From the IMG/VR virus record IMGVR_UViG_3300035670_000153, positions 1 through 64,000 of that record: DNA of 64,000 nucleotides; one strand, 5' to 3'. The position numbers and the translations under genes were made by a program. The notes below the pieces were generated by a model that did not search any database, was not told the DNA's origin, and saw only the letters and a list, made by a program, of their open reading frames with translations. Each line of letters opens with the position of its first letter. The first letter of the stretch is position 1. Positions 4,797 to 59,284 of the stretch are shown piece after piece. This DNA comes from a virus.

Positions 4797-5905
4797 TTAT
4801 CTATACATGCCTTTAGTATATACATATGTTTGTATATGTGAATCATATTGTTTCTTGCTTATCTCTTGAATATTAATAAATCCTTTTACATTATTATACA
4901 TATTAAATATAATTGTAATATCAATTTCATTAGATGATGGATTAAAAATAATGTCATTATATTGAATATGTTCATCTGATAAGGAATCTATAATAGATAA
5001 ATTATTAAAACTACTATCCCATTTTCTTGATAAAATTTTATCTAATACATCATTTAAATTATAAGTTTTTTGTTTAAATAATGAAGTTAATTCTTTTATA
5101 AAATCATTATCTAATATAAAAACTTTATCATATAAAATAGCATCATAATCTGCTTCATTTAGACTATTACAATTACAATGAATATGAATTACTTTAACTT
5201 TTTCATCTTTATTCTGTGATGATGGATTAATCAATTTATTATCTTTCATTAAGCCTCTTAATTCCATTTCGTTAACTAGTTTTTTGTACTGTTCTAGTAA
5301 ATCATCTTGTTTAGGTCTTCTACTTATCATTGCTTAACACACTCCTTATTTTTTATTTTATTTTTTAACCATAGATTAATTATACTATACAAAAAAATAA
5401 AAGTCAATAGGTTAAATTGACTTTTATGTTAATATTAATATTTCAATATTTTTGAGTGATGGCAAATTATATCATTGCTTAATGGTGTTATGTATTCTGC
5501 ATAAATATGATAATTTGAAGTAGTTATCATTTTAATCCACGCTTTTTTACTAAAAGTCCTATTAATATTAGAATTTGAATTTGAATAAAATATATATTCA
5601 TTTATATAAGTTTCCCAATCTGTACATTCAATTTCTCTTTCTTGATGAAGTTCACCACTAGATTTAACACATTGATATTCTTTGATTATCATTTTTTATT
5701 CCTCCTAATATTTTATTTATTAAGTAAATGTCCAAAGTCCTTTATTACATTTATCACACCATACACCTACTTTATCATGTACTTGCCAAAATCTTATTTT
5801 ACTACCATTTGTACTAATATAAAATCCGTCATCATTATCAAACTTTTCATTTGGTTCTGATTTAAATTCAAATTCATATCCACATTGACATTTTATTGTA
5901 AACAT
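4797..5905 (-). other. three hypothetical CDS (4797-5330, 5435-5692, 5720-5905; the last is Zn-ribbon-like)
   Basis: ORF track with SD sites; CQC...CDKC in the last ORF. Confidence 0.6.
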
Positions 5906-5923
5906 ATTGTATTCCTCCTTTAT

Positions 5924-7117
5924 TTAATTATTATTATGGTAAAATAAGGTTTTAAATATTTCTTCAAGCATAGGGACTACTATACCTCTACCTGCTCTTT
6001 CATATAATTTACTATCAGCTAATCCTGCATTTTTTGCTTTGTAAAAATCTTCATCTGTATATCCCATTAACCTCCAACACTCTAATGGAGTTAATTTTCT
6101 GACTTTAAAATCACATAATATTTTTGGCTGTCTATTCCCTCCATTCATAGAGTTTAATGTAGGTGCAATACCTTTATTGCTGTATATTCTTGTATTACTA
6201 TGTATTTTATTATCTAAATTTCCAACTTGTATTAATTGTCTTCTCCTTTTTATAATAAAATTATCTACACTAGTTCCTTTATGATAATTAGCATCAATGC
6301 AATAACTAATATCTTGATGTGGTAAATTTTCTGTTATATGTTCATATCTATGTTTTGATATATAATATTTATTATCTACATTTAATTCTAATATATCTTG
6401 TAAGTTTATATCTATATTTTTACTTATTGGCATTTTAAAATCAATATCATGAGGTTTTAATATACTAATCATGATTACTCTTTCTCTGTTTTGTGGTACT
6501 CCAAAATTTTTACCATTTAAAACTTTCCAATAAGAATCATAACCTAAATCATCTAAAACTTTTATCCATTCTTTAAAATGTTCAATATGTCTTTTCCCTA
6601 CTAAGTTCTTAACATTCTCCATCATTAAATACTTTGGTTTCTTTTGAGTTATTATTCTTTCACATTCCCATAATAATGATGATTGAGTGCCACTATTTTT
6701 TTCTAATCCTGCTTGTTTACCTGCTACTGAAATTGATTTACAAGGATAAGAGTATGTAAATAAATCAAAACATGGTAATTCTTTTTCATTAATTAATCTT
6801 ATATCCCCATAATTTTTACTTCTTTTATGTGCTAAATATAATTTAATTAATTCTTTTTCACTCCTAGGTATTTCTGATTTACTAGTAGAAAAGTTATATG
6901 CAATATTTTTAGATTTTATTTCATTCAACATTTCTTCTTTAGATGGTATTGCAATATATTCTTCTTTATTATTATGTATAGCATCATATCCTATTAATGC
7001 ATTTTTATCAACTTCACTTATTCCAACAATTTCAAAATCAATTCCAATATTTCTAAGTGCCATTTCTTGACTTCCTACACCTGTAAAAGCTGTAAAAACT
7101 TTTAACAAATAAATCAC
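5924..7117 (-). CDS. DNA cytosine-C5 methyltransferase with atypical motif X (possible carboxymethyltransferase)
   Basis: motif I FTGVGS, catalytic PC (SYPCKS), ENV, PQNRER, RKLTPLEC.RLMG; motif X reads AGRGI instead of AGNSI. Confidence 0.92.
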   Translation of the reverse strand: MIYLLKVFTAFTGVGSQEMALRNIGIDFEIVGISEVDKNALIGYDAIHNNKEEYIAIPSKEEMLNEIKSKNIAYNFSTSKSEIPRSEKELIKLYLAHKRSKNYGDIRLINEKELPCFDLFTYSYPCKSISVAGKQAGLEKNSGTQSSLLWECERIITQKKPKYLMMENVKNLVGKRHIEHFKEWIKVLDDLGYDSYWKVLNGKNFGVPQNRERVIMISILKPHDIDFKMPISKNIDINLQDILELNVDNKYYISKHRYEHITENLPHQDISYCIDANYHKGTSVDNFIIKRRRQLIQVGNLDNKIHSNTRIYSNKGIAPTLNSMNGGNRQPKILCDFKVRKLTPLECWRLMGYTDEDFYKAKNAGLADSKLYERAGRGIVVPMLEEIFKTLFYHNNN

Positions 7118-7127
7118 CTCTTTTTAT

Positions 7128-7856
7128 TTATTTTATAGCCATATATCCAACAAAATTCATCCATCTCCAAAAAATATCAATCTTTTTAAAACCTGATTGT
7201 TTTAGTAGGTCGATATTCCAATTAGATGTAACTGGAACTAAAACCCCTTCTAAAGATAATTTTTTCCTATATATTTCTTCTTGTGAATACCCATTTGATT
7301 TTTTAAATTCATAATATTCACTTATCATTAATTCGTTTAATTCATCACAATCTCCTAACACTTTTTCAACAAATAAAAACATGCCACCTTCAAACATCGA
7401 ATTATATATATTTTGTATTATTTTTTGTCTATATTCAATAGGTGTAAATTGTAAAGTCAATATAGATGTTATTAATTGATAATTATCTTTTGGGAAATCT
7501 GTTCTTAAATCTAAATTCAATATTTTTATTGAATTTAGATAATCATACTTATTAAGTCTTTCTAATGCTTTTTTTATCATTGGCTCACTTATATCTATGC
7601 CAGTATATCTTGCATTTTTCCCAAATTCTTTTACGAATCTCTCTAATGATAGACCATTTGAACATCCCAAATCTAATATAGATTTATTATTATTTTTTTT
7701 TAATGAACTACATCCTAATTTAAATATAAGATTTCTCATTTCAGTATACTGTGGAATAGAACGAATTAACATATCTTCAAATAATATAGCTACATTTTCA
7801 TTAAATTCCCATTTCCCATTTTTATTTTCAAAATTTAAATTGTTATTGTTATTCAA
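7128..7856 (-). CDS. cmoA: CmoA-like (carboxy-SAM synthase family) SAM-dependent enzyme
   Basis: WEFNENVA..FEDML.RSIPQY, LDLGCS.G, LTLQF, FVEK, FK..NGYS.EEI..KK.SLEGV, GF....FWRWMNF. Confidence 0.8.
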   Translation of the reverse strand: MNNNNNLNFENKNGKWEFNENVAILFEDMLIRSIPQYTEMRNLIFKLGCSSLKKNNNKSILDLGCSNGLSLERFVKEFGKNARYTGIDISEPMIKKALERLNKYDYLNSIKILNLDLRTDFPKDNYQLITSILTLQFTPIEYRQKIIQNIYNSMFEGGMFLFVEKVLGDCDELNELMISEYYEFKKSNGYSQEEIYRKKLSLEGVLVPVTSNWNIDLLKQSGFKKIDIFWRWMNFVGYMAIK

Positions 7857-7958
7857 TTAAATTTCCTCCTTTAGAATTTAATTTTATATTATAATTTCAT
7901 TATTATAAAAATAAAAGGTAAGGGATTTACCCTCACCCTTTATTAATTGTATATTATA

Positions 7959-9680
7959 TTATTTCCCTAGATTTTTTCTAATTTCAGATAAATTTATTTC
8001 TCTTATAATTTTACCATCTATAAATACATCTGTCAAGACATTATCTGATTTACTATTTGATTCTTCTATTGTTAAGTTATCAATAGCTACTAAATCTCCT
8101 TTTTTATTTCTAACAACAGCTACTCTACCTGTTAAAGACTTTTTAAGTTTATCTGTATCAGTCACTGGGTCTTTGTATATATTGCGTTCTTCCCCATTAA
8201 TAACTACATGTGTTGATTTTAAAGCATACCCAAATGTATCACGGGTATTATATTGGTATGTAAAACTACCTATTCCAAACACCATATTTGTAGATGCAAA
8301 TCCTTTTTCTTTTAATCTACTACATATTATTTCACATCTTTCTAAAGTTATAGCATCACCATATATAGCTCCTATATGTGAATCTAATACCTTATACCCT
8401 TTTTCTGATATTGTTCCACCAAATATATCCCAAAGAATTTCTATTACACCTTTTTCTTCAAGGGTCAAAGTTGTTTCTTCACATGATGCAATAGATACTC
8501 CATCAATATAATAATATTGTTTATCATGTCTATTATATTCAATATCTATTTTTAATCTATAATATTTATCATTAAACTTAAAAATACCAGTATTCTCAGT
8601 ATATCCATGTTCCCCATGTGGAGTTTCATCACTAACTTCTTGTTCTAAAATCGATTTCATATATCTTTTAGCATCATCTAATGTCTTTACATATGTATCA
8701 GTTTCCATATCTACTATTTTAGCAGTTCCACAAATAATATCTTCTGGAATTCCACTATCAGGACGAATAACAACTTTCCCATCTCTTTGTAATATTTTAT
8801 TTTTTAATTTGCTTATTACATCAGTCAATACTTTCCATAAATCCCATGTATCACTTACAATTGATACAATGCCATTTGGGTGAACTTCTGTTATTAATCT
8901 TTTATATGACTCAAATTCATTTTCTCCATATGCACACATAACTGAATGTTCACTTGCTGGAACACTACAAGCAACCAATTCATTCTCAATATTAGCATTA
9001 TAATATTCTTCTAAAAATGATATTGCAGGGATTGTATCAGACCCTACAAAAGACAATAAATGACCTGCTCCACTACTTGATGCTGATTCTAGTGAACCCA
9101 TACCTCTCATGCTAAAATCATGACCTTGGAATGGTACAAATCCTGTATCTCCAATAGTTTCTATTGCATATTTATCCAAAATCTTCTTATATTGTAACGC
9201 AAGTGTAGCTGATGTACTAGGAATCCATAACTGACAAGACATAATTGTTTCAAGATAATTAGTTACCCAAAAAAATTCAGGTATTGTATTTTCAATAGTC
9301 AACATGGGTACTCTTAACGGAACTAATGTACCTTCTTCTATTGCTTTAATTTTTATAGGTAAATATCCTAATTTATGTAATGATATAATATGAGATGCAT
9401 CTGGCTCATTAACCCCTAATGCGTATTTAATTACTCTATTATATTCTTTAACTACTTCATTTATATCTCTATTAAAAAAATGTTCATTAAAATACTCAAT
9501 AAGATATTGTTTGATAAATGCTTGAAATCCAAATGCTACTACTTTATCTACTCCTTTAACTCTACTACCTCTAGGAGTCCAATTTGAATATACATATTCT
9601 GTACCTTCAGGATATTGTTTCAAATGAGAAACCTTATAAAAATCGCATAGTAATGTTGCTGGATAAATTGTTTTTGACAT
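7959..9680 (-). CDS. nicotinamide phosphoribosyltransferase homolog (NARP1 Namat-like)
   Basis: DFYKVSH, HDFSMRG, GSDTIPA, ASEHSVM, SIVSDTWD, VIRPDSG, IYGDAIT, TRDTFG. Confidence 0.92.
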   Translation of the reverse strand: MSKTIYPATLLCDFYKVSHLKQYPEGTEYVYSNWTPRGSRVKGVDKVVAFGFQAFIKQYLIEYFNEHFFNRDINEVVKEYNRVIKYALGVNEPDASHIISLHKLGYLPIKIKAIEEGTLVPLRVPMLTIENTIPEFFWVTNYLETIMSCQLWIPSTSATLALQYKKILDKYAIETIGDTGFVPFQGHDFSMRGMGSLESASSSGAGHLLSFVGSDTIPAISFLEEYYNANIENELVACSVPASEHSVMCAYGENEFESYKRLITEVHPNGIVSIVSDTWDLWKVLTDVISKLKNKILQRDGKVVIRPDSGIPEDIICGTAKIVDMETDTYVKTLDDAKRYMKSILEQEVSDETPHGEHGYTENTGIFKFNDKYYRLKIDIEYNRHDKQYYYIDGVSIASCEETTLTLEEKGVIEILWDIFGGTISEKGYKVLDSHIGAIYGDAITLERCEIICSRLKEKGFASTNMVFGIGSFTYQYNTRDTFGYALKSTHVVINGEERNIYKDPVTDTDKLKKSLTGRVAVVRNKKGDLVAIDNLTIEESNSKSDNVLTDVFIDGKIIREINLSEIRKNLGK

Positions 9681-9697
9681 AATATTCCTCCTATAAT

Positions 9698-10099
9698 TTA
9701 TAATTTATCTTCCATTATTTTAACTGCGTCCAATAGAACACTATAAGCTGATTTTAAACCTGCTCTATCATCTAATAGTATATTGTAATAAACTTTTTTA
9801 CCTGTAAATTTTACAAAATCCATATTTTCGTTAATTCTATCAAATGGTATTTTATTGTCATATAAATAATCTTTAATTTTCATGTATTCATCTTCTCCAC
9901 AACATGTAAAAACTATAAAATGAGCACCAATATTATCGCATCTTTTTAATAATGCTATGATGTCTTCATATTTACGACCTTGTTTATGAAAATCATATAC
10001 TGTATCATCAAAATCATAAGCTATTATAATTTTACCATATTTTTCCCATTCTTTTACAAGTCTATTTACTTGATTTAATTCGTTTAAATAATAATCCAT
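9698..10099 (-). CDS. HAD-superfamily phosphatase-like protein
   Basis: AYDFDDTV (DxDxT), VFT, K.YYNILLDDRA. Confidence 0.7.
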   Translation of the reverse strand: MDYYLNELNQVNRLVKEWEKYGKIIIAYDFDDTVYDFHKQGRKYEDIIALLKRCDNIGAHFIVFTCCGEDEYMKIKDYLYDNKIPFDRINENMDFVKFTGKKVYYNILLDDRAGLKSAYSVLLDAVKIMEDKL

Positions 10100-10108
10100 T
10101 AAATACCT

Positions 10109-10921
10109 CTAATCTAATTTTATTAATTTTTTATGTTCCCAATTATTCAATATGCTATCTGTAGTAAATATTTGAGATATTAAATCAGTTTTTAATAACT
10201 CCCCTTGATATATTGAATTTTCACAATGTGAAACGTACAAATATACATCATTAACACCTTGTTCTTTTAATTTCTCTGCTGACTTATAAAATGTAAATCC
10301 TTTTGAGCATAAATCATCAATAATCAATACATTTTTACCTTTAATATCTTCTGGTACATCTACTAATTCATATTCAATAATATCTCCTGTTTGTAAATCA
10401 CGTTTTTTATTACCATAGAAATATTTGGTGTTATTTGGTAATTTTAAAATTTCACTATACCTTTTACAAGCACCATTATCTGGGTAAAAAACATAATCAA
10501 TATCTTTGATACCAAAAATTGTCTTAATATATCTATTAAAATCTATTTCTACACATCTATCTAATAATGCAATAGATACATTTGAGTGAGGGTCTAATAC
10601 AGTAACTTTATTAAATTCTAATTTATTAATTAATTTACAAAAATATTTTAAAGTAAACATATAACCTTCTATTTTTCTATCCATTCTTGAATACGGTATG
10701 TATCTCATAATTAAATCAATTTTAGGATTGCTGAATGTGTCTTTTAAAAATTCTGTAGCCATAATTAATCTTGTAATATCCCCATCATAACTATATACAA
10801 AATTAATCATAAAATAATTATCTCTTACATTAAGTGCTTTTCGTAATTCATCTGTTTTAAATATTCTTTCGTTATTAGGAAAACAATCTAATCCTATCTC
10901 AACTCCATTTATTGAAACCAT
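10109..10921 (-). CDS. ribose-phosphate pyrophosphokinase homolog (NARP1 Adps-like)
   Basis: FPNNE, YIPYSRMDR, DPHS, PDNGA.KR, K.RD..TG, IIDDLCSKGFTF, YVSH, TTDS. Confidence 0.9.
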   Translation of the reverse strand: MVSINGVEIGLDCFPNNERIFKTDELRKALNVRDNYFMINFVYSYDGDITRLIMATEFLKDTFSNPKIDLIMRYIPYSRMDRKIEGYMFTLKYFCKLINKLEFNKVTVLDPHSNVSIALLDRCVEIDFNRYIKTIFGIKDIDYVFYPDNGACKRYSEILKLPNNTKYFYGNKKRDLQTGDIIEYELVDVPEDIKGKNVLIIDDLCSKGFTFYKSAEKLKEQGVNDVYLYVSHCENSIYQGELLKTDLISQIFTTDSILNNWEHKKLIKLD

Positions 10922-17586: not shown

Positions 17587-18188
17587 TTATTCTATGTTAA
17601 AATGTTTTTCAATATGAGAAGTCAATCTTTTTTTCATTTTACTTTTTACTTCTTTTTTAATTTCATCAATTATTTCTATATAAGATTCTTGTATTAAATC
17701 TTCTATATCTGATGGATTTACTAAATATCTATCATATCTTTCTAAGTCGTTTTTAAATTGTCCAATAATAATATTTTTCATTGCATTTTTTATATGATTT
17801 AAATCTTCACTTGTAAATATGGTTTTTATATCTCCAAAATTATTATTCATTTAGCTCCTCCATTTTAATAATATGTGCTTATTACTAATGTTTTAAATTC
17901 TTCTGACATATAAGTATCTGTCTTAGCAATAAACACATTATTCCCATTTTCATCACTATATCTAACATCATTATCAAATATCCTAAATAAATCATCTTTC
18001 CTTAAATCTTTAAAATTAATAATCTCCCATTTTTTACAATCCTTATTAAATAATTCATATCTTCTTCCTATAGATATTTTATTAATTTGTGGGAATTTAT
18101 GTTTACATTTTTCACACCATATACTCCTAATATTGGGATTACATTCACACATAATCATATTCCTCCTTATTTTATAATAAACATTCAA
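17587..18188 (-). other. two hypothetical CDS (17587-17850, 17865-18188)
   Basis: ORF track. Confidence 0.6.
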
Positions 18189-18978
18189 TGTACAATTTGT
18201 CTTGCGTAAATACAGGTATTTCTTTATCTATAATCCACTTAGAGCGAACTGTATCACCTTTATAATAGTTTCTTTTAATAATACAGCTTCCTCGTTTTTT
18301 ATAAGTTTCTACATCATTAAAATTAATCCCTTTTTCTATAAATAATTTATCTTGTAATTTATCACAAGATAATCCTTGTAATTGTTTGTGACTAAAATTG
18401 GCTTGTGCTAACATTTGGATTGAATTTCTTGTGGCATCTTGTTGTCTCCAAATGAAGTAGTTAGCTACCTCTTCTTTTGGTATAATAAATGCTCTGCTAT
18501 CAAACAATGCAGTTCCTATTTTCTTATAGTAAATATCAGCAAACTTTTTTATTTCAGGATTTATAAACTCGGAGTATTTTTCATCTACTCCTTTATTTTG
18601 ATAATCCCATACATTTAGTCCAAATGATTTGTTAAATCCCATAGTAGCTATACTTGCAGATACGCTTACCATTTTTTGAATATTTTTATTGAACCATGCA
18701 TCAGTCGTAATCGTGTCATCATCGGTAAATAAAAGAGAGATTTCATCTGATTGGACATACGCAATTTTACAGCCTTGTATTCTCTCACATAGCTCTTTAG
18801 CTGTTTCTTGCATTGTATTAATTAAAACTTCATCAAAAGGTTTTTGAAACCCTTTAGTAAAGGTATGGAATGCTTTTCCGTCAATTCTTATAATTACTGG
18901 AATTCTTCTTGTTAAAAATATTCTGCTTATATCTTCATATTTTTTCATTCTATCCCCTAAAGAATCATTTTTATTCAT
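18172..18978 (-). CDS. Thg1-like protein (tRNA-His guanylyltransferase / 3'-5' polymerase)
   Basis: LGDRMK.YE, RIDGKAFHTFT, YVQSDEISL, FDSR, YFIWRQQDATRNSI, KRG. Confidence 0.92.
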   Translation of the reverse strand: MNKNDSLGDRMKKYEDISRIFLTRRIPVIIRIDGKAFHTFTKGFQKPFDEVLINTMQETAKELCERIQGCKIAYVQSDEISLLFTDDDTITTDAWFNKNIQKMVSVSASIATMGFNKSFGLNVWDYQNKGVDEKYSEFINPEIKKFADIYYKKIGTALFDSRAFIIPKEEVANYFIWRQQDATRNSIQMLAQANFSHKQLQGLSCDKLQDKLFIEKGINFNDVETYKKRGSCIIKRNYYKGDTVRSKWIIDKEIPVFTQDKLYIECLL

Positions 18979-19151: not shown

Positions 19152-20483
19152 TTATGTATTTAATTCATAATGCTTCTTAATTACATTATGATATTTATTA
19201 TATAAATAAGATTTACTATCAAATGTATCAGTCTCTTGTGTATCAATAACAAACATATTATAATTGTTAACTTTGTAATCACGTACAATGCCATCTTTTA
19301 ATATAAGTTGTTGTTTAAATACTTGATAGTTGACTTGATGATGCCATCTATTAAATTTCCAAACAACTTTAGCAACATCAGGATGCATATCTTCTAACAT
19401 CTTTGATTTAGGATAAGTTCCTTCATGAGAATAAAATTCTTCTGTATTACCTCCTTCTATTTTTTGAGTAGTGCATTTACCCGCTAGAAAAGCATTGAAT
19501 TGGACTGTACACCATCCATCTTTTAATGCTCTAATACTTAAATCAGTATCTTCATTATACCTACCTCTCCATCTATAAGGGATATCATTTCTTATCAATA
19601 AAAAAGAATATATTCGTGTATTTAAAACGAATGCAGGTGTTTTGTCAGACATTTTACAAAACATAGAATAGTTTAATCCTGCTATTGCTAAATTTTCATA
19701 CCTATCCACAAAATCTTCACATGCAGAGAATATAGCTCCTGTTCTACATTTTTGTTTCATATTATTATTCATATAATGGAATCCTTCTAACGCATTATCA
19801 TCAAATACCCAATGCCATTCATGTCCATTAAGTATTGAATGCTCCCAACAAAAATTTCTAGCAGCTCCTGGACCGCATGACTTTGAATTACCTAAATCAT
19901 CAAAAGTATCATAATCATCTTTATATTTCATATCAAGCTCTAGAATTGTGGCATATTTATTTTGCACATTCTCTTGATACTTATTAAAATCAGATGGTTC
20001 TACAACTACAAAATGTTTAACTTCCATTTGTGATAAGTATCTAGATGTGTAACACTTATTACTCCTACCTTTACTAACTATATATATCGGATATCTATTT
20101 TCATTATAATTTCCAAGAACTCTTAATGAAGAATGTTTACCTGCTATAAGTTTAGGATACCAAACACTAGTTGTCTTTTCAGATATGTTTTGGTCAAATA
20201 TTTCTTGAGCTAACTGTAAATCTTCTGAGTTAAATATAAAATTAATTTTAGCATACGGTTCTTGTTTGTTAGAGATATATTCTGGCATATTAAACCATTC
20301 TTTTTGCCATTGTTCTTTTGATACCTTTTTATTTAAAGTCCTTTTTTTTTCTTTAAACTCATGGGTATGGATATTAAATTCTGTCATACTCGAGTTTAGC
20401 ATAATATTATTCCGTTTGGAAAACTCATTCAAATCATTTTCATTTTCAAATCTACAAATAATAATATTTCTCATAAGACACAT
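19152..20483 (-). CDS. GT-A fold glycosyltransferase (TET-associated/GREB1-like family) with N-terminal extension
   Basis: YPIYIVSKGR, VVEP, GPGAARNF.W, HWVFDDN, RIYS..LI, WRGRYNEDTDLS, GGNT. Confidence 0.7.
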   Translation of the reverse strand: MCLMRNIIICRFENENDLNEFSKRNNIMLNSSMTEFNIHTHEFKEKKRTLNKKVSKEQWQKEWFNMPEYISNKQEPYAKINFIFNSEDLQLAQEIFDQNISEKTTSVWYPKLIAGKHSSLRVLGNYNENRYPIYIVSKGRSNKCYTSRYLSQMEVKHFVVVEPSDFNKYQENVQNKYATILELDMKYKDDYDTFDDLGNSKSCGPGAARNFCWEHSILNGHEWHWVFDDNALEGFHYMNNNMKQKCRTGAIFSACEDFVDRYENLAIAGLNYSMFCKMSDKTPAFVLNTRIYSFLLIRNDIPYRWRGRYNEDTDLSIRALKDGWCTVQFNAFLAGKCTTQKIEGGNTEEFYSHEGTYPKSKMLEDMHPDVAKVVWKFNRWHHQVNYQVFKQQLILKDGIVRDYKVNNYNMFVIDTQETDTFDSKSYLYNKYHNVIKKHYELNT

Positions 20484-49409: not shown

Positions 49410-51404
49410 TTATTCATTTATCATATTAAATAATTCATCTAATCCAATAACTTTTACATTTAATTGATTAGCTTTTTCTAATTTACTCCCTGCTTTTTCC
49501 CCTGCAATAAGATAATTTGTTTTTTTAGAAACAGAACTTACAGGAACTCCACCATTATCCTCAATCATTTGAGAGATTTGCTCTCTTTTATAATCACCGA
49601 ATGTACCTGTAACACAAAAAGTTAGTTCTTTCAATCTATGTAAAGATGACTGTGATAATGGGGATTGTTCCATATCTATATTTAAATAACTTAATACATC
49701 TAAAAATGCATTATAGTTATGAGTTGTATTAAACCAATCTTTTAATGAATTACTCATAGCACTTCCAAAATCTTCTAACTTAGTAAAATCAAAATTGTTT
49801 TTAAAAATATCCTCTAAAAATATAGATATATTGTTTTTATAATATTTAGCAATTGTCTTAGATGCAGACTTTCCAATTAGAGGAATACTCATTGAATATA
49901 TTAATCTATGCATTTCTGTATTTTTTGCTTGTTCAATTGATTCGATAAGTTTATTATACGACTTTTTACCAAATCCGTCAAGTGCAATTATTTCTATTTC
50001 TTTATCTTTTTTATTTAATTTAAATAAATCACTGTATGTATTTATTATATCATACTTTATAAATTTGTCAAGTGTTGATTCACTTAATCCATCAATGTTC
50101 ATTGCAGACTTAGACGTAAAGTGTGATAATTTCTTTAATATTTTTCCTGAACACATATCATTAGTACATATTAACACTTCTGTATCATTGTCTTTAGTTA
50201 TTTTAGTATCACTATTACAACTCGGACATTGTTTAATAATTTCCATATTATTAGATTGTGTCAGATTATTAATTATCTGAGGAATAATCATATTAGCTTT
50301 AATAACTTCAACTTCGTCTCCAATACCTATTTTTAATTCTTTTAAAATACTAATATTATGCAAACTAGCTCTTCCTACTGTAGTTCCATCAATTTCAATA
50401 TCATCAAATATAGCTACGGGAGTAATTTGTGTCTTCCCTACACTCCATTCAATAGCTTTAATAGTAGATGTTACACTTTCATCCTTAAATTTAAATGCTA
50501 ATGATGCTAGAGGATGATGTGAAGTATATCCTAAACTTTCACTATACTGTCTACTATCAAAAGTAAATACAATACCATCAATTGGCATTTTTAAATCTTC
50601 TGATATATTTTTTAAAGTAGTAATATAATGATTTAAAGTAACTACATCAGTAAGCGTAGATGATGTACAAGGAGATATAGAAAATCCATATGTTATAAGT
50701 GTTTGTAAATTCTCTAATTTTGAATCAAATATAGTATTTTCTTCATTTTTTGGTAATCTCATTTCAAAAGCATAGAATTTAATAAATCTTTCTGCACAAA
50801 CTTTACTATCCAATTGTCTTACAGAACCCGAAACAAGGTTTCTAGGATGTTTATACTGTGATTCTGTAGGAAGTTTAGAATTAATATATTCAAAGTCATT
50901 TAAATGTATTATAGCCTCTCCTACGACTTCTAATTTATATTTGTATGGTATTTTCAATGGAATATTTTTAAACACTTTAGCATTATGTGTGATATCTTCT
51001 CCTATTGACCCATCCCCTCTTGTAGATGCTCTTTTTAATTCCCCATTATTATATTCTAATTTAACTGTTAATCCATCCATTTTACTCATTACAACATATT
51101 TTTTATTATTTAAAAATTTTGAAACGATTGCAACATCTTTAGTTTTATCAAGAGACAAAAGTCTTATGTCATGTGAAACTTTGTTTAAATCACTCATAAC
51201 TACATATCCAACTTCTTTTGTAGGTGAATTTGATAAAACAATATCATATTTATATTCTAATTCAGTTAATTTATCATATAATGCATCATATTCTTTATCA
51301 GATATAATACTTTTATTATTATTATAGTACTCATGTCTATAGTAGTTTAATTGTTTCACTAAATCATGTATTTCTTTTATTGGAATATCTAGATTATCTC
51401 TCAT
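49410..51404 (-). CDS. ligA: NAD+-dependent DNA ligase
   Basis: YY...ISD.EYD, KMDG, TRGDG, PRN, DGIV, AFKF, Zn finger, HhH, BRCT domain. Confidence 0.96.
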   Translation of the reverse strand: MRDNLDIPIKEIHDLVKQLNYYRHEYYNNNKSIISDKEYDALYDKLTELEYKYDIVLSNSPTKEVGYVVMSDLNKVSHDIRLLSLDKTKDVAIVSKFLNNKKYVVMSKMDGLTVKLEYNNGELKRASTRGDGSIGEDITHNAKVFKNIPLKIPYKYKLEVVGEAIIHLNDFEYINSKLPTESQYKHPRNLVSGSVRQLDSKVCAERFIKFYAFEMRLPKNEENTIFDSKLENLQTLITYGFSISPCTSSTLTDVVTLNHYITTLKNISEDLKMPIDGIVFTFDSRQYSESLGYTSHHPLASLAFKFKDESVTSTIKAIEWSVGKTQITPVAIFDDIEIDGTTVGRASLHNISILKELKIGIGDEVEVIKANMIIPQIINNLTQSNNMEIIKQCPSCNSDTKITKDNDTEVLICTNDMCSGKILKKLSHFTSKSAMNIDGLSESTLDKFIKYDIINTYSDLFKLNKKDKEIEIIALDGFGKKSYNKLIESIEQAKNTEMHRLIYSMSIPLIGKSASKTIAKYYKNNISIFLEDIFKNNFDFTKLEDFGSAMSNSLKDWFNTTHNYNAFLDVLSYLNIDMEQSPLSQSSLHRLKELTFCVTGTFGDYKREQISQMIEDNGGVPVSSVSKKTNYLIAGEKAGSKLEKANQLNVKVIGLDELFNMINE

Positions 51405-51417
51405 TATTATACCATCC

Positions 51418-51990
51418 TTATTTAATTAATTTTTTTAATTCTTTTTGTAATGATTTAATTTTTGCTCTAGTATAAGCAATTTTAATTCCAGTAGTTTTAT
51501 TATATTCATCATCTTTACAACATTTTGCAATACCTTTAGAACCATCATCTAATATTACTATAGTTGCATTTTTACTATGAATTACTTTTTGTGTTCTTTC
51601 AGGAATAGAAAATGCTCCTTTTTTTAATTCTCCTGTAGTATTACTATGTTCTGTGAATGATACATAATATTTATTATATGTAAATATTTTTACTTCATCT
51701 TGAAATTTATTTTTTACTTCATCTTCTAATTTCATTTCTAATTTACATTCACTATCTATTACAAACATTTTCGATGTCCATCTCCACCTTTGATTGTCTT
51801 CTTCTAAATAATAAATATCATCTTCATCTGCCCAATCAATTCCATACTCAGCATGACAAATAGTTACAAGTTTACCTTTTAAATTTAATTTATCCATATC
51901 TGATATATATGAATCATTACCATATGATTCACCTACAATTAAATCTTCTCTTACTTGAACCTTATCTCCAACTTTTAATTTTTTATACAT
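51418..51990 (-). CDS. hypothetical phage protein
   Basis: GGAGG SD, 190 aa ORF. Confidence 0.7.
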   Translation of the reverse strand: MYKKLKVGDKVQVREDLIVGESYGNDSYISDMDKLNLKGKLVTICHAEYGIDWADEDDIYYLEEDNQRWRWTSKMFVIDSECKLEMKLEDEVKNKFQDEVKIFTYNKYYVSFTEHSNTTGELKKGAFSIPERTQKVIHSKNATIVILDDGSKGIAKCCKDDEYNKTTGIKIAYTRAKIKSLQKELKKLIK

Positions 51991-52003
51991 ATAAATCCTC
52001 CTT

Positions 52004-53206
52004 TTAAATAATTTCTATTAAATATTTTACAGTACAAGCTTCTTCTTTGTATACAACAATTTCATCTTTTCTTAACATTCCAGTTCCACCATGAGCATGT
52101 AAACAATTTGCTCCTTTACATGCACTTTGCAGTATATTTTGATTGAAATTATAATATTTACTATCAAAACTATAAACATCATATGCTTTTCCATAAGCAG
52201 TCTCCATCAATAACATAAATCCTGTATGTTCAGACCCATGTGACCATCTTGAACCTGATACGCTTGTGTATCCTCTTGATTTATCAAAATCATTAGATAA
52301 ATAAATCCCGCTGCCAAACATCTTACCCGTAATTACTGCATTTGGTCTTAATACAAGACCAGAATTTAAAATACTCCAAACATTTTCTGACCTAGTACCA
52401 TGGAAAAACAAATCTGTTTTTAATATGTTTTCACTTTTTAAGTAATCATTATATTTATTTTGAGTTTTTTTATTTGTAATCTTCCATCCTTGTTTAAATT
52501 TATCTTGCATAGAACCCATTTTTGATTTTATTGCTTTTATATCTTTATCATTTAACTCTTCAAATTCTATTCCTAAAGCTTCTAATATTGTTTGATTTTT
52601 TGTAACAACATCATCATCATTATTGTTGTTATCTTCAATTTTATTTTGTTTTACTTGACCTTCCATAATATCTAGTAAATCTTGTTCTCGATTTATTATA
52701 GATATGTAGTCATCTTTTGATTCTGCTAAATAATCTACTACTTTTTTCATTTTTCTTGGAATAGTTTTAAATAATTGCAACAATACTTCATTGAATTTGT
52801 TACATTCATTTTCATTTCCAAGATTATAAAGTAAAGTCTGAGCTTCATCAACCATTAATTGTGTAACTTTATCAGATGATATGGTATAATTATCTTTTAC
52901 GGTTTGTCTAGCTATTGCTTGTAATCTCTCAACTATTTTTGAAATATTAGGATTATCTAATGATAAATATTCATTTTTCTTTTTTATAATAGGTACTTCT
53001 ATTAATCTTGTCTGGTCAACATATCCCTTTTTTATTTTGCTATTCAAAGTAGAATGCCATTTACCCATTGGATATGTTTTTGATTGATATGATGTATTTC
53101 CTATCCTACCATATTGGACTTCAAATGTAGAACCTAATTCAATCATTTTATAATACTTATTATTATTTGCATCTGCCTCTACCTTAACAAGATAAACTGT
53201 TTTCAT
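52004..53206 (-). CDS. WGR + PARP-family ADP-ribosyltransferase
   Basis: NNKYY...YGRIG...KIKKGY (WGR); IPR; FHGTR, MFGSGIY, KSRGY, DEIVVY (H-Y-E triad). Confidence 0.88.
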   Translation of the reverse strand: MKTVYLVKVEADANNNKYYKMIELGSTFEVQYGRIGNTSYQSKTYPMGKWHSTLNSKIKKGYVDQTRLIEVPIIKKKNEYLSLDNPNISKIVERLQAIARQTVKDNYTISSDKVTQLMVDEAQTLLYNLGNENECNKFNEVLLQLFKTIPRKMKKVVDYLAESKDDYISIINREQDLLDIMEGQVKQNKIEDNNNNDDDVVTKNQTILEALGIEFEELNDKDIKAIKSKMGSMQDKFKQGWKITNKKTQNKYNDYLKSENILKTDLFFHGTRSENVWSILNSGLVLRPNAVITGKMFGSGIYLSNDFDKSRGYTSVSGSRWSHGSEHTGFMLLMETAYGKAYDVYSFDSKYYNFNQNILQSACKGANCLHAHGGTGMLRKDEIVVYKEEACTVKYLIEII

Positions 53207-53292: not shown

Positions 53293-54312
53293 TCAATGAG
53301 CGTATTTATCAGCTTCATGCACCATCATTAATTCATTATAAAAATCTTCACCAACTAAATTAATTAATTTTTGTTTTGATTTTTCTGTATTTGTATTATG
53401 TAGTCTCATATGAAATTTTATTAATTGACTAATATGTAAAATTTGAAGTATATTATTTTGGTAATTCTCATAGTCATATTCAGGAATTAGTTTTGATATC
53501 ATTTCTAAGAATATTAATATCCCATCATAAGCTGATACATTTTCATGGTTATAAAAATGTGCTATATCAGTTGTTTCTCCTTTATGATTTATAAATGTTT
53601 TAGTAAATTCTTTTCCAATATCATGTAGGAATGTTGCAAATACAACATCATAATTAACTCCATGTTTTTGAATAATATAATCTTTAGCTTTACGACAGTG
53701 TTGCCCTACTGTTAATGTATGATAAGGAGAATCTTGATTTATAATATCTAGTCTTTCAAATATTTTATCAATACTATATTTTTTTAAATCATTTATTTCA
53801 TATTTAATATCAATTTTATCCCAACCTTCAAAATAATAAGGCACATCAAAATTTAAATACATTCTTTTAATAACATCTACAGGAACATTTCTATCTCTAT
53901 TTTTATTTTGTTCTAAACATTTGTCATATGGAGTAAGAATTAAAACAGCAATTTTTTCACAGTCAATATTATTAATCTGTCTTAGGAATTCCATTCTCCT
54001 TTTACTTGATATGTTTGTAGCATCATATACTACATTATTTCCATTTAATAAGTTTGATTTAATTCTATCATGAACAATTTGAAATACATACCATTGATTA
54101 CTTTGGTCATTTATATCTCCTAATACTTCTTCTCTAATTGAGTCTGATGAAACTATGATAGCATTATGTGTCTTTGCTATCTCTTGTGAATGATAAGATT
54201 TTCCACTAGCAGGTAATCCTATCATAAAAAATAATTTTGGTCTTAAATTTAATTTACTCATAACATCATCTTCTTTCTTTTTTATTTTTATGTCGTAAAT
54301 ATATAATATCAT
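53293..54312 (-). CDS. polynucleotide kinase (AAA_33) fused to HD phosphohydrolase
   Basis: GLPASGKS, SSDSIR, YDATN..RR, N.NR.R.VP; H..TV..H, LHDIGK, H, HM, D. Confidence 0.88.
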   Translation of the reverse strand: MILYIYDIKIKKKEDDVMSKLNLRPKLFFMIGLPASGKSYHSQEIAKTHNAIIVSSDSIREEVLGDINDQSNQWYVFQIVHDRIKSNLLNGNNVVYDATNISSKRRMEFLRQINNIDCEKIAVLILTPYDKCLEQNKNRDRNVPVDVIKRMYLNFDVPYYFEGWDKIDIKYEINDLKKYSIDKIFERLDIINQDSPYHTLTVGQHCRKAKDYIIQKHGVNYDVVFATFLHDIGKEFTKTFINHKGETTDIAHFYNHENVSAYDGILIFLEMISKLIPEYDYENYQNNILQILHISQLIKFHMRLHNTNTEKSKQKLINLVGEDFYNELMMVHEADKYAH

Positions 54313-54367
54313 ATATTATTTACAATGTCAAGAGTTCTGTGAAAATTGATTACAGAACTCTTTATCA

Positions 54368-54814
54368 TTAATTAACTTTATTAAATTCAACATTAAAATA
54401 TTCTTGTACTTCTTTTTTAGCATCTTTAAAGCATTTAATATAATATTTTAAATCACTAACTTCTTTTTCTTTCAACTTCATATCTCTAATTAGTTGAATT
54501 ACAACTCGAAACATAGAACCATCATCTTTATAACCAAACCATCCATTATGTATCCATTCCTCTGTTCCATCTGTATATTTAACTAATTTTTGCAGTGACC
54601 TACAACCATCGCTTTTAGTTACAAACCTAATAAAATTATTAATTATAGTAATCTGTTCACTATTATCTAATGGTTCACGTTTTTCTTTTCTTATTTTTTT
54701 TGTAGATGTTTCAGAATCAGAATCCTCTTCAAAATCGTTTTCATTTTCTAACTCAACATCTAAATCTAACTCTAATTCATCTGTAATTAAGCTATTTTTT
54801 GACATAATGCACAA
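54368..54814 (-). CDS. hypothetical protein with acidic N-terminus
   Basis: ORF with GGAGG SD. Confidence 0.65.
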   Translation of the reverse strand: MCIMSKNSLITDELELDLDVELENENDFEEDSDSETSTKKIRKEKREPLDNSEQITIINNFIRFVTKSDGCRSLQKLVKYTDGTEEWIHNGWFGYKDDGSMFRVVIQLIRDMKLKEKEVSDLKYYIKCFKDAKKEVQEYFNVEFNKVN

Positions 54815-54845
54815 CCTCCAATTATTTTATTTTAATATTATTATA

Positions 54846-56168
54846 TTATTCATCTTGAACGCTTTGTGCTTCTTCAATATCTAATACATCATCGGATTTA
54901 ATTATACCTTCTAAAACCTTAAATGTAAAGTTTTTATTTTTTAATGCAGTAAATTTTTCTCTGTTTTCAATTCTTACCACAATACCTTCTCTGATATGAG
55001 ATTTACCAATTGGGTCTACTCCATCAGTATATTTATTTACTCTTTGCATTAAATCTTCTTGAGTAGTATATATAAATTTTTCAAATACAGGAACATGTTC
55101 AATTCCCATTTGTTCACATCTCATTTGTGTTAATTCTGTAGGATATTCTACTACAATTCCATCTTCATTTGTCATAGTCATTCTATATACAAATACCTTA
55201 TTTTCTCCAACATTACATCTATATGTAAACCTAGTAGTTTCACCATATTGTTTAATAAATTCTTTATCTTTTGTTTTACTATTATTGCATTCAGGCATAA
55301 TTAATTGATTACTTTCTGTATATCCTACAATTTCTCCATAAACTGTCTCTCCTTTATGTAATTTACCTAGGAAAAAATTATGCCATTGTTCTCTGAATTT
55401 ATTTGTCCCATAAAATCCACCATCAAATGTATTCAATATGACTCTTCTTGAACCTGAAACATAATCCCATTCTTGTGTAGATTTAAATTTTACACCTAAA
55501 ATATAAAGCAAATTTAAAATGAATCTAGGTAATTTACTATTCCATTTAGATTGAGTAATTTTAAATGCTCTACTTTCTCTTAAACTTGTTCCATGCATTT
55601 TTAGAGATATAGTACAAATATCACCTTCTTTAAATTTAGCCATATTATAAGCTAATTGTTCAGTGTCTCTGTGTTCTGAAAAATAAGGAAATTTATTTTT
55701 TAAACTTATTTTCTTAGAATTACTTACTTTCATTCCTGTATTTTTTGAACCATTTATATGATTTGTTTGAGGAATATACTTATTACAAATTTCTACCCCA
55801 TTTAGGATTGAAATTGTGTCACCTTCTTTTAAAGTACCAACATCGGTAAAACTATGTAAACTATTGACATTTAACAATAAGCCATCTGATTTTTCACCTC
55901 TTAATTTTACTGATGAAACATGTCTTTTGTTTGGGTCTAAATATCCACCAATTTCATTCCCTTGTTCATCTTTCTTACGCAACAAATTATTTGCCTCACA
56001 AAAACCCATATTTAATCTTCCATCTGTTGGGAAATATACCATCATATCTCCAATTTTTACATCTAATCCAACTATAGTATCATTTCCAAATACTGTTGCT
56101 ACTTGTAATCTATCTGCATTAGAATGTTTTCTTAACTCTTTTATTCTTACAATATATCCACAATACAT
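54846..56168 (-). CDS. ATP-dependent RNA ligase (DRB0094/Rnl2-like) with N-terminal tRNA-binding OB-like domain
   Basis: HSNADRL N-terminus, motif I KMHGTS, GSR, YGEIVG, EGIVVR, K.K..F. Confidence 0.85.
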   Translation of the reverse strand: MYCGYIVRIKELRKHSNADRLQVATVFGNDTIVGLDVKIGDMMVYFPTDGRLNMGFCEANNLLRKKDEQGNEIGGYLDPNKRHVSSVKLRGEKSDGLLLNVNSLHSFTDVGTLKEGDTISILNGVEICNKYIPQTNHINGSKNTGMKVSNSKKISLKNKFPYFSEHRDTEQLAYNMAKFKEGDICTISLKMHGTSLRESRAFKITQSKWNSKLPRFILNLLYILGVKFKSTQEWDYVSGSRRVILNTFDGGFYGTNKFREQWHNFFLGKLHKGETVYGEIVGYTESNQLIMPECNNSKTKDKEFIKQYGETTRFTYRCNVGENKVFVYRMTMTNEDGIVVEYPTELTQMRCEQMGIEHVPVFEKFIYTTQEDLMQRVNKYTDGVDPIGKSHIREGIVVRIENREKFTALKNKNFTFKVLEGIIKSDDVLDIEEAQSVQDE

Positions 56169-57220
56169 TATACAATACCTGCTTTCTTTAATATATTTTT
56201 ATTTATTTCAATTACTAATTCATTTATTTTATTTTCATCTGGTTTTAATGGTAATTCAGTATGTTTAATAGAAAATTTTAAATCTTTTTCTGCTTTATCA
56301 ATCATATTAAAAATTTCTGAATAATCTTTATTATTATCTTTATTAATTACATAATCTCCATTCCTTAATGCCATCATAAACTCATGTTCATGTGCTCTAT
56401 TTGTAATAACTCCTTTACCTTCTAATATTTCTTTCCCCATTCTCATAAGTCTTATAATATGCATTACATGCTTATTTAAATGGATATCATCTTTCTTATT
56501 GTTTCTATGATTAAGAGAATCATAATCTTTAATAACATTTTTCCATTCAGATAATATAGATAATAAATCTCTTAATGGATAATGTTTAAGATTTAAATTT
56601 AAAAATATTTCTTCATCAAAATCTGTTTTGTTTGATTTATCAAGAAATAAGTTAATATCTTTCCCATCAAAGCAATGATAATTACGTTCTATATGTTCTC
56701 TTTGATGATTTATACTGTCTAATATGTGTTTCTCTTTTTCTTTTTGAGGATATGAGTCACGTGCTAAAGCATTTTGTAATCTTCTTAATTGAGCTGTAGC
56801 ATATCCACAAAAGGAATGTATTGCTCTTTGAGATAAAAATAAATTGATATTATCTCTTAATATTTTACCTTCATTACTTAATACAAAAATATCTTCTTCT
56901 CTAGTTCCAAATATTTCTAGTACATTGGGATTGCAATTCAATAAAAGATTAATAATTTGTTTAAAATAATAAATAGTAGTATCTGTTTTAGTTTCTACAA
57001 ATGGCTTATCTGTATTATTCATAGTCAGTAAATCATAATAACTATTATGTGCAACTCCTCTAATATCAATATCACTATTTTCATTATTTAATCCATAAGC
57101 ATATGAACCACCTAATGTAAGTATCATTAAATTATCTTTAAATTTATCTTTTAAAAAATCATAATCATTACTTGTATAAATTGTTTTTTGTATCTTTTTT
57201 GAATAATTATTTCCCATATT
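56168..57220 (-). CDS. Pol-beta family nucleotidyltransferase, RlaP/YcgL-like
   Basis: GGSYAYGL...SDIDIRG, NPN.LE, GYA..QL, KH.MH..RL; stop overlaps the RNA ligase start; probable start MNMGN. Confidence 0.85.
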   Translation of the reverse strand, partial: NMGNNYSKKIQKTIYTSNDYDFLKDKFKDNLMILTLGGSYAYGLNNENSDIDIRGVAHNSYYDLLTMNNTDKPFVETKTDTTIYYFKQIINLLLNCNPNVLEIFGTREEDIFVLSNEGKILRDNINLFLSQRAIHSFCGYATAQLRRLQNALARDSYPQKEKEKHILDSINHQREHIERNYHCFDGKDINLFLDKSNKTDFDEEIFLNLNLKHYPLRDLLSILSEWKNVIKDYDSLNHRNNKKDDIHLNKHVMHIIRLMRMGKEILEGKGVITNRAHEHEFMMALRNGDYVINKDNNKDYSEIFNMIDKAEKDLKFSIKHTELPLKPDENKINELVIEINKNILKKAGIV

Positions 57221-59245: not shown

Positions 59246-59284
59246 AGGGGAAAACCTCCTGTTTATTATTTATTTTTATTTCTA

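Follow-up and report, generated by a model that had tools for sequence, protein, structure and literature searches.

A phage CmoA homologue beside an arginine-type C5-cytosine methyltransferase: a predicted cassette for cytosine carboxymethylation

Results

A CmoA gene directly upstream of a CmoX-type methyltransferase gene

The window analysed here is a stretch of 64,000 nucleotides from a 72-kb viral record that is about 44% complete, the full phage genome being expected to span about 160 kb. On the minus strand of the window, a gene for a CmoA homologue lies directly upstream of a gene for a C5-cytosine methyltransferase homologue, and we consider it likely from their sequences that the two form a CmoA-CmoX-type DNA-modification cassette making 5-carboxymethylcytosine (5cxmC). 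The CmoA homologue would convert host SAM and prephenate to carboxy-SAM (Cx-SAM). In the second enzyme, Arg377, which replaces the asparagine of motif X, would pair with the carboxylate of Cx-SAM, so that a carboxymethyl rather than a methyl group would be transferred to C5 of phage-DNA cytosines, giving 5cxmC. The chemistry and the biological role proposed here are predictions drawn from gene order, protein families, residue matches and co-occurrence. An initial annotation had already read the pair as a Cx-SAM synthase with a DNA cytosine-C5 carboxymethyltransferase; the alignments and the co-occurrence with CmoA reported below support that reading.

The system itself is known. CmoA-CmoX-CmoY has been described in Synechococcus phage S-B43, along with 5,615 candidate CmoX genes (Nat Commun 2025, PMC12783734; December 2025); this is the cyanophage precedent to which the initial annotation had pointed, and our literature search found no further paper on a natural CmoX. 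The pair in the window is an uncharacterised example of this system that may stand among the published candidates, and is not a discovery. Its features are as follows.

7128..7856, minus strand: CmoA homologue, 242 aa, TTG start; predicted carboxy-SAM synthase
5924..7117, minus strand: CmoX-type C5-cytosine methyltransferase homologue; predicted DNA cytosine-C5 carboxymethyltransferase
5987..5989, minus strand: codon AGA of Arg377, motif X; predicted Cx-SAM carboxylate-binding residue
6737..6742, minus strand: codons of catalytic Cys126 and of Lys127, motif IV
7260..7262, minus strand: codon AAA of CmoA Lys199, which aligns with Arg199 of E. coli CmoA
7109..7127, minus strand: intergenic spacer, with a Shine-Dalgarno-like AGAGGTG at 7115-7121 (sequence read)
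7865..7870, minus strand: Shine-Dalgarno AGGAGG, 8 nt ahead of the CmoA TTG start
7910..7944, minus strand: terminator-like hairpin separating cmoA from the NAMPT gene upstream; the sole such site in 5300-8100 (mean in shuffles, 0.3)

Both reading frames are present in the ORF list as first annotated (242 aa at 7128-7856 and 397 aa at 5924-7117, both minus strand), and so are all the strings quoted from them: ERAGRGIVV (residues 373-381) and PCKS (residues 125-128) in the methyltransferase, RKKLSLE in the CmoA homologue. The gap of 10 bp given for the pair holds for the first in-frame GTG at 7117 (397 aa), a codon that falls within the Shine-Dalgarno-like AGAGGTG. Translation more likely begins at the TTG at 7108, which leaves a spacer of 19 nt and yields 394 aa, the length of database entry P0001. 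Methyltransferase residues are numbered here from the GTG at 7117. Depending on the start codon chosen, 10-19 nt separate the CmoA stop from the methyltransferase start on the same strand, a layout that fits a two-gene operon. The pair is flanked by NAMPT on one side and by small ORFs on the other, and it probably begins a transcription unit of its own, because the terminator-like hairpin separates NAMPT from cmoA. The 177-aa ORF at 4797-5330 was considered as an accessory enzyme and rejected: neither Pfam nor PHROG assigns it to a family, and a search of the ESM Atlas yielded nothing usable (TM at most 0.36).

The methyltransferase carries two basic residues at its active site

The methyltransferase matches Pfam DNA_methylase (PF00145, E 7.6e-66), and its closest solved relative in a HMMER search of solved structures is M.MpeI (4dkj, E 4e-47). 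The catalytic machinery of a C5-methyltransferase is complete (motif I FxGxG, Cys126, ENV and QxRxR), with the cytosine-contacting residues E167-N-V and Q209-N-R211-E-R213 invariant in alignments A1 and A3. In the HMMER alignments, with positions counted from the printed coordinates, Cys126 lies within a PC motif opposite the PC motifs of M.MpeI and M.HhaI, while Arg377 lies opposite M.MpeI Asn374 and M.HhaI Asn304; the initial annotation had made its reading depend on the alignment to Asn374. An hhalign comparison (probability 98%, E 1.9e-13) pairs Arg377 with Arg350 of SpCmoX and Cys126 with Cys98 of the same protein. In the crystal structure of SpCmoX (8YF3), R350 contacts the carboxymethyl group/carboxylate of Cx-SAM (PMC12783734). 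That a basic residue at the motif X asparagine converts C5-methyltransferases, as first proposed for this gene from M.MpeI N374K, is borne out by published variants: M.MpeI N374K, M.MedI N377K and M.CviPI Y205K/R all gained Cx-SAM activity (PMC12015181, PMC13288465).

Motif IV reads PCK, where relatives have PCQ or PCT. Among the best 150 representatives, all 15 Arg-type proteins combine Arg377 with Lys127, which none of the 129 Asn-type proteins has. The Arg and Lys at these two active-site positions are conserved clade-wide; arginine occupies the motif X position in 119 of the 120 nearest homologues. The enzyme falls in a PCK/ERAGRG clade (SH-aLRT 99) and is 28% identical to SpCmoX; its membership of a PCK + ERAGRG subfamily, far from the sole characterised CmoX and close to M.MpeI, is well supported by these comparisons. 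The literal SPPC string used as a filter in the published search is not found in this enzyme, which reads S-Y-P-C. Within the clade, the second position of this motif varies (F/Y/P/A), and SPPC does occur in some members, the Clostridioides entries for example; the string is a filter and no mechanistic requirement.

An independent, convergent origin of the arginine in the PCK subfamily and in SpCmoX was considered; it is not supported here but may still hold. A quick tree put SpCmoX outside the PCK clade, on a branch 5.3 long, but a tree forcing all Arg-type rows together fitted better, with a log-likelihood 25 higher and a p-AU of 0.873, in a comparison that retained the motif X columns and left out the near-duplicate row L088.

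The CmoA homologue keeps the cofactor contacts

The upstream protein matches NCBIfam TIGR00740 (CmoA) over its full length (E 8.2e-47), at 159.9 bits against an equivalog cut-off of 193.3 bits. That cut-off is tuned to bacterial orthologues; the validated SpCmoA scores 115.6 bits, lower than the homologue in the window, and other phage CmoAs score 138.5-170.9. Matches in the PDB include H. influenzae YecO (1im8, E 3.9e-29) and E. coli CmoA (4gek, E 1.2e-26). The SAM-contact residues of E. coli CmoA are Tyr39, Asp62, Gly64, Ser66, Asp89, Asp117, Phe137 and Glu164 (PMC3663124), and they are kept in the window as Tyr37, Asp62, Gly64, Ser66, Asp88, Asp116, Phe137 and Glu164.

The initial annotation had cautioned that a lysine replaces Arg199 of E. 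coli CmoA, a residue that salt-bridges the carboxylate of Cx-SAM (PMC3663124). Alignment to 4gek, allowing for a 14-residue tag offset, proves this correct. The substitution nonetheless appears to carry little weight, because Lys is found in 39 of the 125 relatives (R 76, K 39, Q 6) and the biochemically active SpCmoA has Glu199, with an Arg at 203. A basic side chain is retained at position 199 in the window, and Lys199 also occurs in the CmoA of locus L086, which bears the full gene trio.

Lys199 and the score under the curated cut-off could also be taken to mean that at least one of the two genes is an inactive relic and that the DNA is not modified via the pair. This is very improbable: an active SpCmoA scores lower still, lysine is common at this position even in a trio-bearing locus, the two reading frames are unbroken and preceded by good ribosome-binding sites, and the catalytic motifs are all there. 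The same two features of CmoA, together with the 28% identity to the characterised CmoX and SYPC in place of SPPC, are the points of sequence that would speak against the cassette as we read it.

CmoA accompanies arginine-type enzymes only

The first scan comprised 160 rows, made up of 159 loci (IMG/VR and genomes, some contigs fetched twice) and the whole record. CmoA stood beside the methyltransferase in all six Arg rows (the whole record, G000; L001 and its duplicate L082; L083; L086; L088) and in 0 of 149 Asn rows, five further rows being unreadable. In the second scan, of 80 metagenome loci, it was present in 9 of 10 Arg/PCK loci, the exception being a contig of 1,786 bp with no space for a neighbour, and in 0 of 67 Asn loci and 0 of 3 loci with an unreadable motif X. 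The pairing of a motif X arginine with an adjacent CmoA is near-perfect across about 240 related loci and is not due to chance. A single-protein scan of genome contigs returned only three Asn-type loci, and an alignment query would reach further; a search of the phage collection for near-identical DNA gave no match. In one relative (L001, enzyme 65% identical), the full CmoA-CmoY-CmoX trio is present, as in S-B43, and at metagenome locus L172 a PCK-type and an SpCmoX-type enzyme both stand beside a single CmoA.

This pairing bears on a different account, in which the methyltransferase is an ordinary 5mC enzyme and CmoA serves either the phage tRNAs (Ser-UGA, Pro-UGG) or the depletion of host SAM as counter-defence. 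The phage does encode 10 tRNAs, two U34 species among them, SAM depletion was raised as a possibility by the S-B43 authors (PMC12783734), and the CmoA of Alcaligenes phage Afa-NA1 (47% identical) has no C5-methyltransferase within 5 kb. Moreover, engineered Lys variants still methylate with SAM (PMC12015181, PMC13288465), and a mixed 5mC/5cxmC output is possible for this reason. Yet CmoA went strictly with Arg-type and never with Asn-type enzymes in both scans, the Arg and Lys are conserved across the clade, and wild-type SpCmoX is reported to accept Cx-SAM only and to refuse SAM (PMC12783734). In addition, the record holds no CmoB that could use Cx-SAM on tRNA, the one hit being an 11.8-bit cross-match on CmoA itself, and a role in tRNA cmo5U would thus be without its transferase. 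We regard an ordinary 5mC enzyme as improbable and retain DNA carboxymethylation as the likely function. No chorismate mutase was found in the record, and the supply of prephenate by the host is assumed.

Free 5cxmC as the probable product

Free 5cxmC would most likely be left as the product of the pair, because a CmoY-type ligase was found neither beside it nor in the 72-kb record. CmoY is an ATP-dependent amide ligase for 5cxmC that resembles Asn synthetase and has a PP-loop. PF00733 recovers CmoY in four of four controls (S-B43, G001, G003 and G004) and finds nothing in the record; tblastn with two CmoY queries likewise gave no match in the whole record, which is about 44% complete. Every CmoY that we found directly adjoins CmoA or CmoX, a place taken here by NAMPT and small ORFs. 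Ten of the 15 Arg-type rows with CmoA (one duplicate locus) lack CmoY within the flanks scanned, and Pfam scans of 46 window ORFs found no other amide ligase. Because most cassettes of the PCK subfamily are without a ligase, free 5cxmC may be a terminal base of phage DNA.

These same observations weigh against a reading in which 5cxmC is an intermediate and is turned into a hypermodified base by another enzyme, one that either lies in the ~56% of the genome that is unsequenced or has escaped recognition in the window. We consider this reading unlikely but still the most serious competing possibility. The virion DNA of S-B43 is reported to hold the glycine amide only and no free 5cxmC (PMC12783734), CmoY accompanies the PCK subfamily in L001, L086, L088 and L183, and a distal CmoY-like ligase or another amide ligase could sit in the remainder of the genome. 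A further candidate is a TET-associated-glycosyltransferase gene (TAGT; PF20691, E 1.1e-38) at 19152-20483, 12 kb away. TAGT is absent from the other four CmoX-bearing records, two of them at least 90% complete, and was rejected as a general partner of CmoX. TAGT is present in the record but Tet_JBP gave no match there, so that the combination of TET/JBP and TAGT that marks methyltransferase-TET-glycosyltransferase hypermodification was not found in this record, about 44% complete; nor was a thymidylate-synthase-like hydroxymethylase.

Discussion

Comparison with natural and engineered systems

S-B43 (locus L078) shares with the window a CmoA gene beside a C5-methyltransferase homologue with ERxGR in motif X, the aligned Arg (R350) and Cys (C98), ENV, QxRxR and a lack of CmoB. 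It differs in sequence (28% identity between the window enzyme and SpCmoX, 29% between the CmoAs), in motif IV (SPPCS against SYPCK), in having CmoY, which the window record does not, and in its cyanobacterial host, the window phage having an inferred low-GC Gram-positive one. The CmoAs also differ at positions 199 and 203: the window protein has the E. coli-like basic-199/Glu203 arrangement, SpCmoA Glu199/Arg203. Relative to the E. coli CmoA/CmoB pathway for tRNA cmo5U (4gek; PMC3663124), the window CmoA has the same fold, cofactor contacts and predicted reaction, but with Lys for Arg199, no CmoB, and DNA cytosine rather than tRNA ho5U34 as the predicted acceptor.

Among the engineered enzymes (M.MpeI N374K, M.MedI N377K), M.MpeI is the closest solved structure and has the same unusual insertion between motifs II and IV; in its N374K variant, the basic residue sits at exactly the position occupied in the window enzyme. 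Unlike that engineered enzyme, the window enzyme is natural and has Arg instead of Lys, and its catalytic Cys is followed by another basic residue, Lys127. The residues with which M.MpeI reads CpG, F302/S304/E305 (PMC10899764), correspond to I305/S307/N308 in the window, and its loop G322-R326 (PMC10899764) to N325-G-G-N-R-Q330, with a one-residue insertion. Because these loops are not conserved, CpG specificity cannot be assumed, and a target motif is not inferable from them. SpCmoX targets GC (PMC12783734); k-mer statistics of the window phage indicate restriction-site avoidance and do not single out the modified site.

A cultured Bacillota phage offers a parallel in layout. The Staphylococcus phage SPbeta-like cmoA + 'hhaIM' (KT429160.1, L167) form a ligase-free two-gene cassette like that of the window, but the methyltransferase there has PCQS and, at motif X, Gly (VVGGVIN) in place of the window's Arg, and falls outside the PCK clade, where it forms a long branch.

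More tentatively, and with considerable doubt, we propose that the PCK type may be a second, uncharacterised CmoX subfamily, in which Arg377 and Lys127 would have co-evolved to hold Cx-SAM. It would usually come as a ligase-free two-gene cassette, leave free 5cxmC as the end product in the DNA of phages that infect low-GC Gram-positives, and represent a natural counterpart of M.MpeI N374K, probably with a short non-CpG site. Lys127 would then be a predicted second cofactor-selecting residue.

Biological role, use and host

The modification would likely guard the DNA of the phage against nucleases of its host. In the S-B43 work, HhaI was blocked in vitro by 5cxmC (PMC12783734), and by analogy 5cxmC may have an anti-restriction role in the window phage. 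Natural and presumably efficient Cx-SAM-dependent enzymes could also serve DM-seq, CMD-seq and footprinting, which now depend on weak engineered variants. The pair would extend the CmoA-CmoX system to large phages of low-GC Gram-positive hosts; before the publication of December 2025 it would have been a discovery.

A host among the Bacillota (Firmicutes) or low-GC Gram-positives is plausible, on indirect grounds, from the gene content. The phage encodes an endolysin with an S-layer-homology domain, its replicative polymerase is most like the polymerases of Geobacillus and Bacillus phages, and some close relatives of its CmoX bear the name of Clostridioides.

Gene pair and its layout

The window forms the first 64 kb of a linear IMG/VR virus record of 72,172 bp (GC ~25%; 44% complete by CheckV estimate). 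The region under study contains:

7128-7856, minus strand: CmoA homologue, 242 aa (NCBIfam TIGR00740, full-length, E 8.2e-47, 159.9 bits)
5924-7117, minus strand: C5-cytosine methyltransferase, 397 aa (Pfam PF00145, E 7.6e-66; TIGR00675, E 6.2e-61)
7910-7944, upstream of CmoA: terminator-like hairpin, the sole one in the region

On the minus strand, the CmoA ORF is followed by that of the methyltransferase, with TAA-ATAAAAAGAGGTGATTTATTTG as intergenic sequence. CmoA is preceded by its own AGGAGG and starts with TTG; given also the upstream hairpin, the pair looks like a bicistronic unit. The GTG opening the methyltransferase ORF falls within a Shine-Dalgarno-like AGAGGTG, so that TTG at 7108 is the likelier start. 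It would leave 19 nt between the genes and a protein of 394 aa, equal in length to the database entry P0001. Methyltransferase residues are numbered here from the GTG.

Active-site arginine and published precedent

M.MpeI (4dkj, 8c56) was the top HMMER match among all PDB sequences (E ~4e-47), the printed alignment placing ...LYERAGRGIVVPMLE... over ...MIYIAGNSIPVKILE.... In this sequence alignment, Arg377 stands opposite M.MpeI Asn374, as counted from the printed coordinates and as the initial annotation had expected; it likewise stands opposite M.HhaI Asn304. Together with the ORFs and family profiles, this confirms the claim that a CmoA-family gene lies beside a C5-methyltransferase with a motif X arginine. 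Motifs I, IV, VI (ENV) and VIII (QNRER) are all intact. Residues at the positions of M.MpeI's two CpG-recognition loops differ, with a one-residue insertion, and the target site is therefore not readable from the sequence.

The cyanophage precedent mentioned in the initial annotation proved real. In Synechococcus phage S-B43, Yang et al. (Nat Commun 2025, PMC12783734) describe a CmoA that makes carboxy-SAM (Cx-SAM), a CmoX (SpCmoX) that uses it to carboxymethylate cytosine C5 at GC sites, and a CmoY that ligates glycine onto the carboxylate. By their account, SpCmoX Arg350, which stands in for HhaI Asn304, contacts the carboxymethyl group in their crystal structure; the R350N mutant is inactive, and Cx-SAM is the sole cofactor accepted by wild-type SpCmoX (PMC12783734). 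Their survey of IMG/VR, UniProt and MGnify, which filtered CmoX on 'SPPC' and R350, gives 5,615 candidate CmoX, 4,257 CmoA and 2,251 ligases (PMC12783734). In view of these findings, this kind of system is already known and described as widespread; SpCmoX is the one characterised natural enzyme, and the system studied here is an uncharacterised new example of the kind published in December 2025.

SpCmoX (8yf3) gave a weak, partial phmmer match to the window enzyme (E 3.8e-5). A profile of 26 clade members aligned with it over 325 columns (hhalign, probability 98%, E 1.9e-13), with Cys126/Cys98 and Arg377/Arg350 in the same columns, and E-R-x-G-R is common to both enzymes. At the sequence level, the proposed reading of the pair as a putative DNA cytosine carboxymethylation system is supported.

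A subfamily with its own signature

Motif X arginine is found in 119 of the 120 nearest database proteins (51-100% identity, the window enzyme itself included), and 117 combine it with a lysine after the catalytic cysteine (PCK type). When 1.84 billion representatives were searched exhaustively, 31,759 matches were returned, the best 150 of which were classified. Asn occurs with either Gln or Thr in 129 of them, and Lys with Arg in 15; two have Lys and a truncated motif X, three have Gln and an unread motif X, and one has Thr and Gly. Mixed types (Lys with Asn, or Gln/Thr with Arg) were not found among these 150.

In a 48-row tree, the PCK/ERAGRG proteins form one clade of 21 rows (SH-aLRT 99), one of which, P0029, bears Asn. 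The branch leading to SpCmoX is very long. Constraining it to group with the PCK clade improved the likelihood by +25 (p-AU 0.873), so the arginine may have a single origin; with the motif columns themselves left in the alignment, this is weak evidence. The window methyltransferase is a member of this subfamily, which has a distinct active-site signature and in which the ligase is usually absent.

CmoA accompanies the arginine-type enzymes

Related methyltransferase loci were fetched, and their motif X residue and neighbours read. In a first pool of 160 rows (159 loci plus the whole record, some contigs twice), six rows carry Arg: this record, L001, its duplicate L082, L083, L086 and L088. CmoA adjoins the enzyme in all six and in none of the 149 Asn rows; the other five were unreadable. 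In a set of 80 metagenome loci, CmoA is present at 9 of 10 Arg/PCK loci, the exception lying on a 1,786-bp contig that leaves <400 bp to either side of it, and at 0/67 Asn loci and 0/3 loci with motif X unread. Beyond the cassette, these phages have next to nothing in common with the window, so the pair travels as a module.

The metagenome locus L172 (3172-7077, plus strand) has one CmoA, then three consecutive genes resembling C5-methyltransferases. One is unusual (PCT, with QRCSGIPS in the region of motif X), one is of the SpCmoX type (SPPC, ERIGR) and shares 37% identity with SpCmoX (E 3e-71), and one is of the PCK type. Since both types occur there, the two subfamilies exist side by side as separate enzymes that presumably recognise different sites; the locus looks like a multi-specificity carboxymethylation cassette.

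Other relatives depart from the common layout. At L206 (4552-6756, plus strand), a PCK-type CmoX adjoining CmoA is split by an intein-like insert of ~340 aa exactly at the catalytic motif (…SYP-C[FVAGT…IVHN]-CKNISVAG…). The CmoX of a 154-kb phage (L001:9986-11467, plus strand), 65% identical to the window enzyme, has a ~96-aa insertion in the variable, target-recognition region; its two similar …(A)IRGR/IVGR…NP…PKSR… segments may represent an added or duplicated recognition module. In a Staphylococcus phage SPbeta-like (KT429160.1; L167:4983-6682, plus strand), cmoA is directly followed by a C5-methyltransferase in which Gly takes the place of Arg or Asn in motif X (AYDVVGGVIN); it reads PCQS, and its motif VIII is QKRKR. 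This may be a third way to accommodate Cx-SAM, or an unrelated pairing. Among cultured phages, Alcaligenes phage Afa-NA1 (PV550095.1) gave the best match to the window CmoA (47% identity). No gene for a C5-methyltransferase occurs within 5 kb of it; it is surrounded by genes for a NUDIX hydrolase, a dTMP kinase and a 'DNA adenine methylase', and CmoA may serve other acceptors in that phage.

CmoA and the predicted end product

The window CmoA scores under the TIGR00740 cut-off (159.9 vs 193.3 bits), which says little, since SpCmoA scores still lower (115.6 bits). The initial annotation had cautioned that Lys occupies the position of E. coli Arg199, which salt-bridges the carboxylate in the structure described in PMC3663124; our alignment agrees. 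Of 125 aligned CmoA-like rows, in which the window's CmoA is counted twice, 76 have Arg here, 39 Lys, six Gln and four another residue. Lys199 also occurs in the L086 CmoA, part of a full CmoA-CmoX-CmoY trio, and SpCmoA, which is biochemically very active, carries Glu199 and an Arg four residues further on. These comparisons weaken the caveat. The other cofactor contacts are conserved. CmoB, the tRNA cmo5U transferase, was not found in the record, which argues against a tRNA role for CmoA.

Unlike S-B43, the 72,172-bp record (~44% complete) yielded no CmoY: PF00733, which detects CmoY in S-B43 and three CmoX-bearing IMG/VR records, found none here or in the record of L083, and two CmoY proteins used as tblastn queries gave no match to this record. 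Wherever found, CmoY adjoins the pair (order A-Y-X in L001, A-X-Y in L086 and L088). It is present in 5 of the 15 Arg-type rows with CmoA from both pools (L001, L082, L086, L088, L183), one being a duplicate locus and some flanks being short. Given its absence from the record, outside which ~56% of the genome lies, free 5-carboxymethylcytosine would be the most economical end product in this phage.

Host and other features of the record

The endolysin carries an SLH domain, the DnaE-type polymerase shares 39-45% identity with its counterparts in a 176-kb gut phage, Geobacillus virus E3 and Tsamsa-like Bacillus phages, and some clade members are named from Clostridioides, which makes a low-GC Bacillota host likely.

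The whole record shows extreme restriction-site avoidance. GATC is absent (~156-178 expected), as are GGCC, GCGC, CCGG and CGCG (each ~17 expected by zero-order, or 2-11 by Markov models); GGNCC, CCWGG and CCNGG occur 1, 3 and 3 times for 17, 13 and 17 expected. Observed/expected is 0.36 for CpG (402 sites) and 1.01 for GpC (1,114 sites). The phage combines site avoidance with predicted modification. Further genes include:

19152-20483, minus strand: TET-associated glycosyltransferase (TAGT) domain protein, 443 aa (PF20691, E 1.1e-38; phrog_842, annotated 'beta-glucosyl-HMC-alpha-glucosyltransferase')
2020-2577: T4 gp1-like dNMP kinase domain
7959-9680, minus strand: nicotinamide phosphoribosyltransferase
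9698-10099, minus strand: small HAD-like protein
10109-10921, minus strand: PRPP-synthetase-like protein
49410-51404, minus strand: NAD-dependent DNA ligase
52004-53206, minus strand: PARP catalytic domain and WGR protein
within 53293-62276, minus strand: PNK-like AAA_33+HD protein, RNA ligase, RlaP nucleotidyltransferase
57770-59245, minus strand: Ro60/TROVE protein with vWA domain
59285-62276, minus strand: ten tRNA genes, one with an odd two-base anticodon call
18172-18978, minus strand: Thg1-like tRNA-His guanylyltransferase

The glycosyltransferase and the dNMP kinase domain hint at a second base-modification pathway; neither TET/JBP nor a thymidylate-synthase-like hydroxymethylase was found in the record, and TAGT was not found in any of the four other CmoX-bearing records. 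The genes at 7959-10921 and 49410-53206 form an NAD-centred set, possibly for NAD+ replenishment against NAD-depleting defences, and those at 53293-62276 and 18172-18978 make up a large module for RNA repair and tRNAs.
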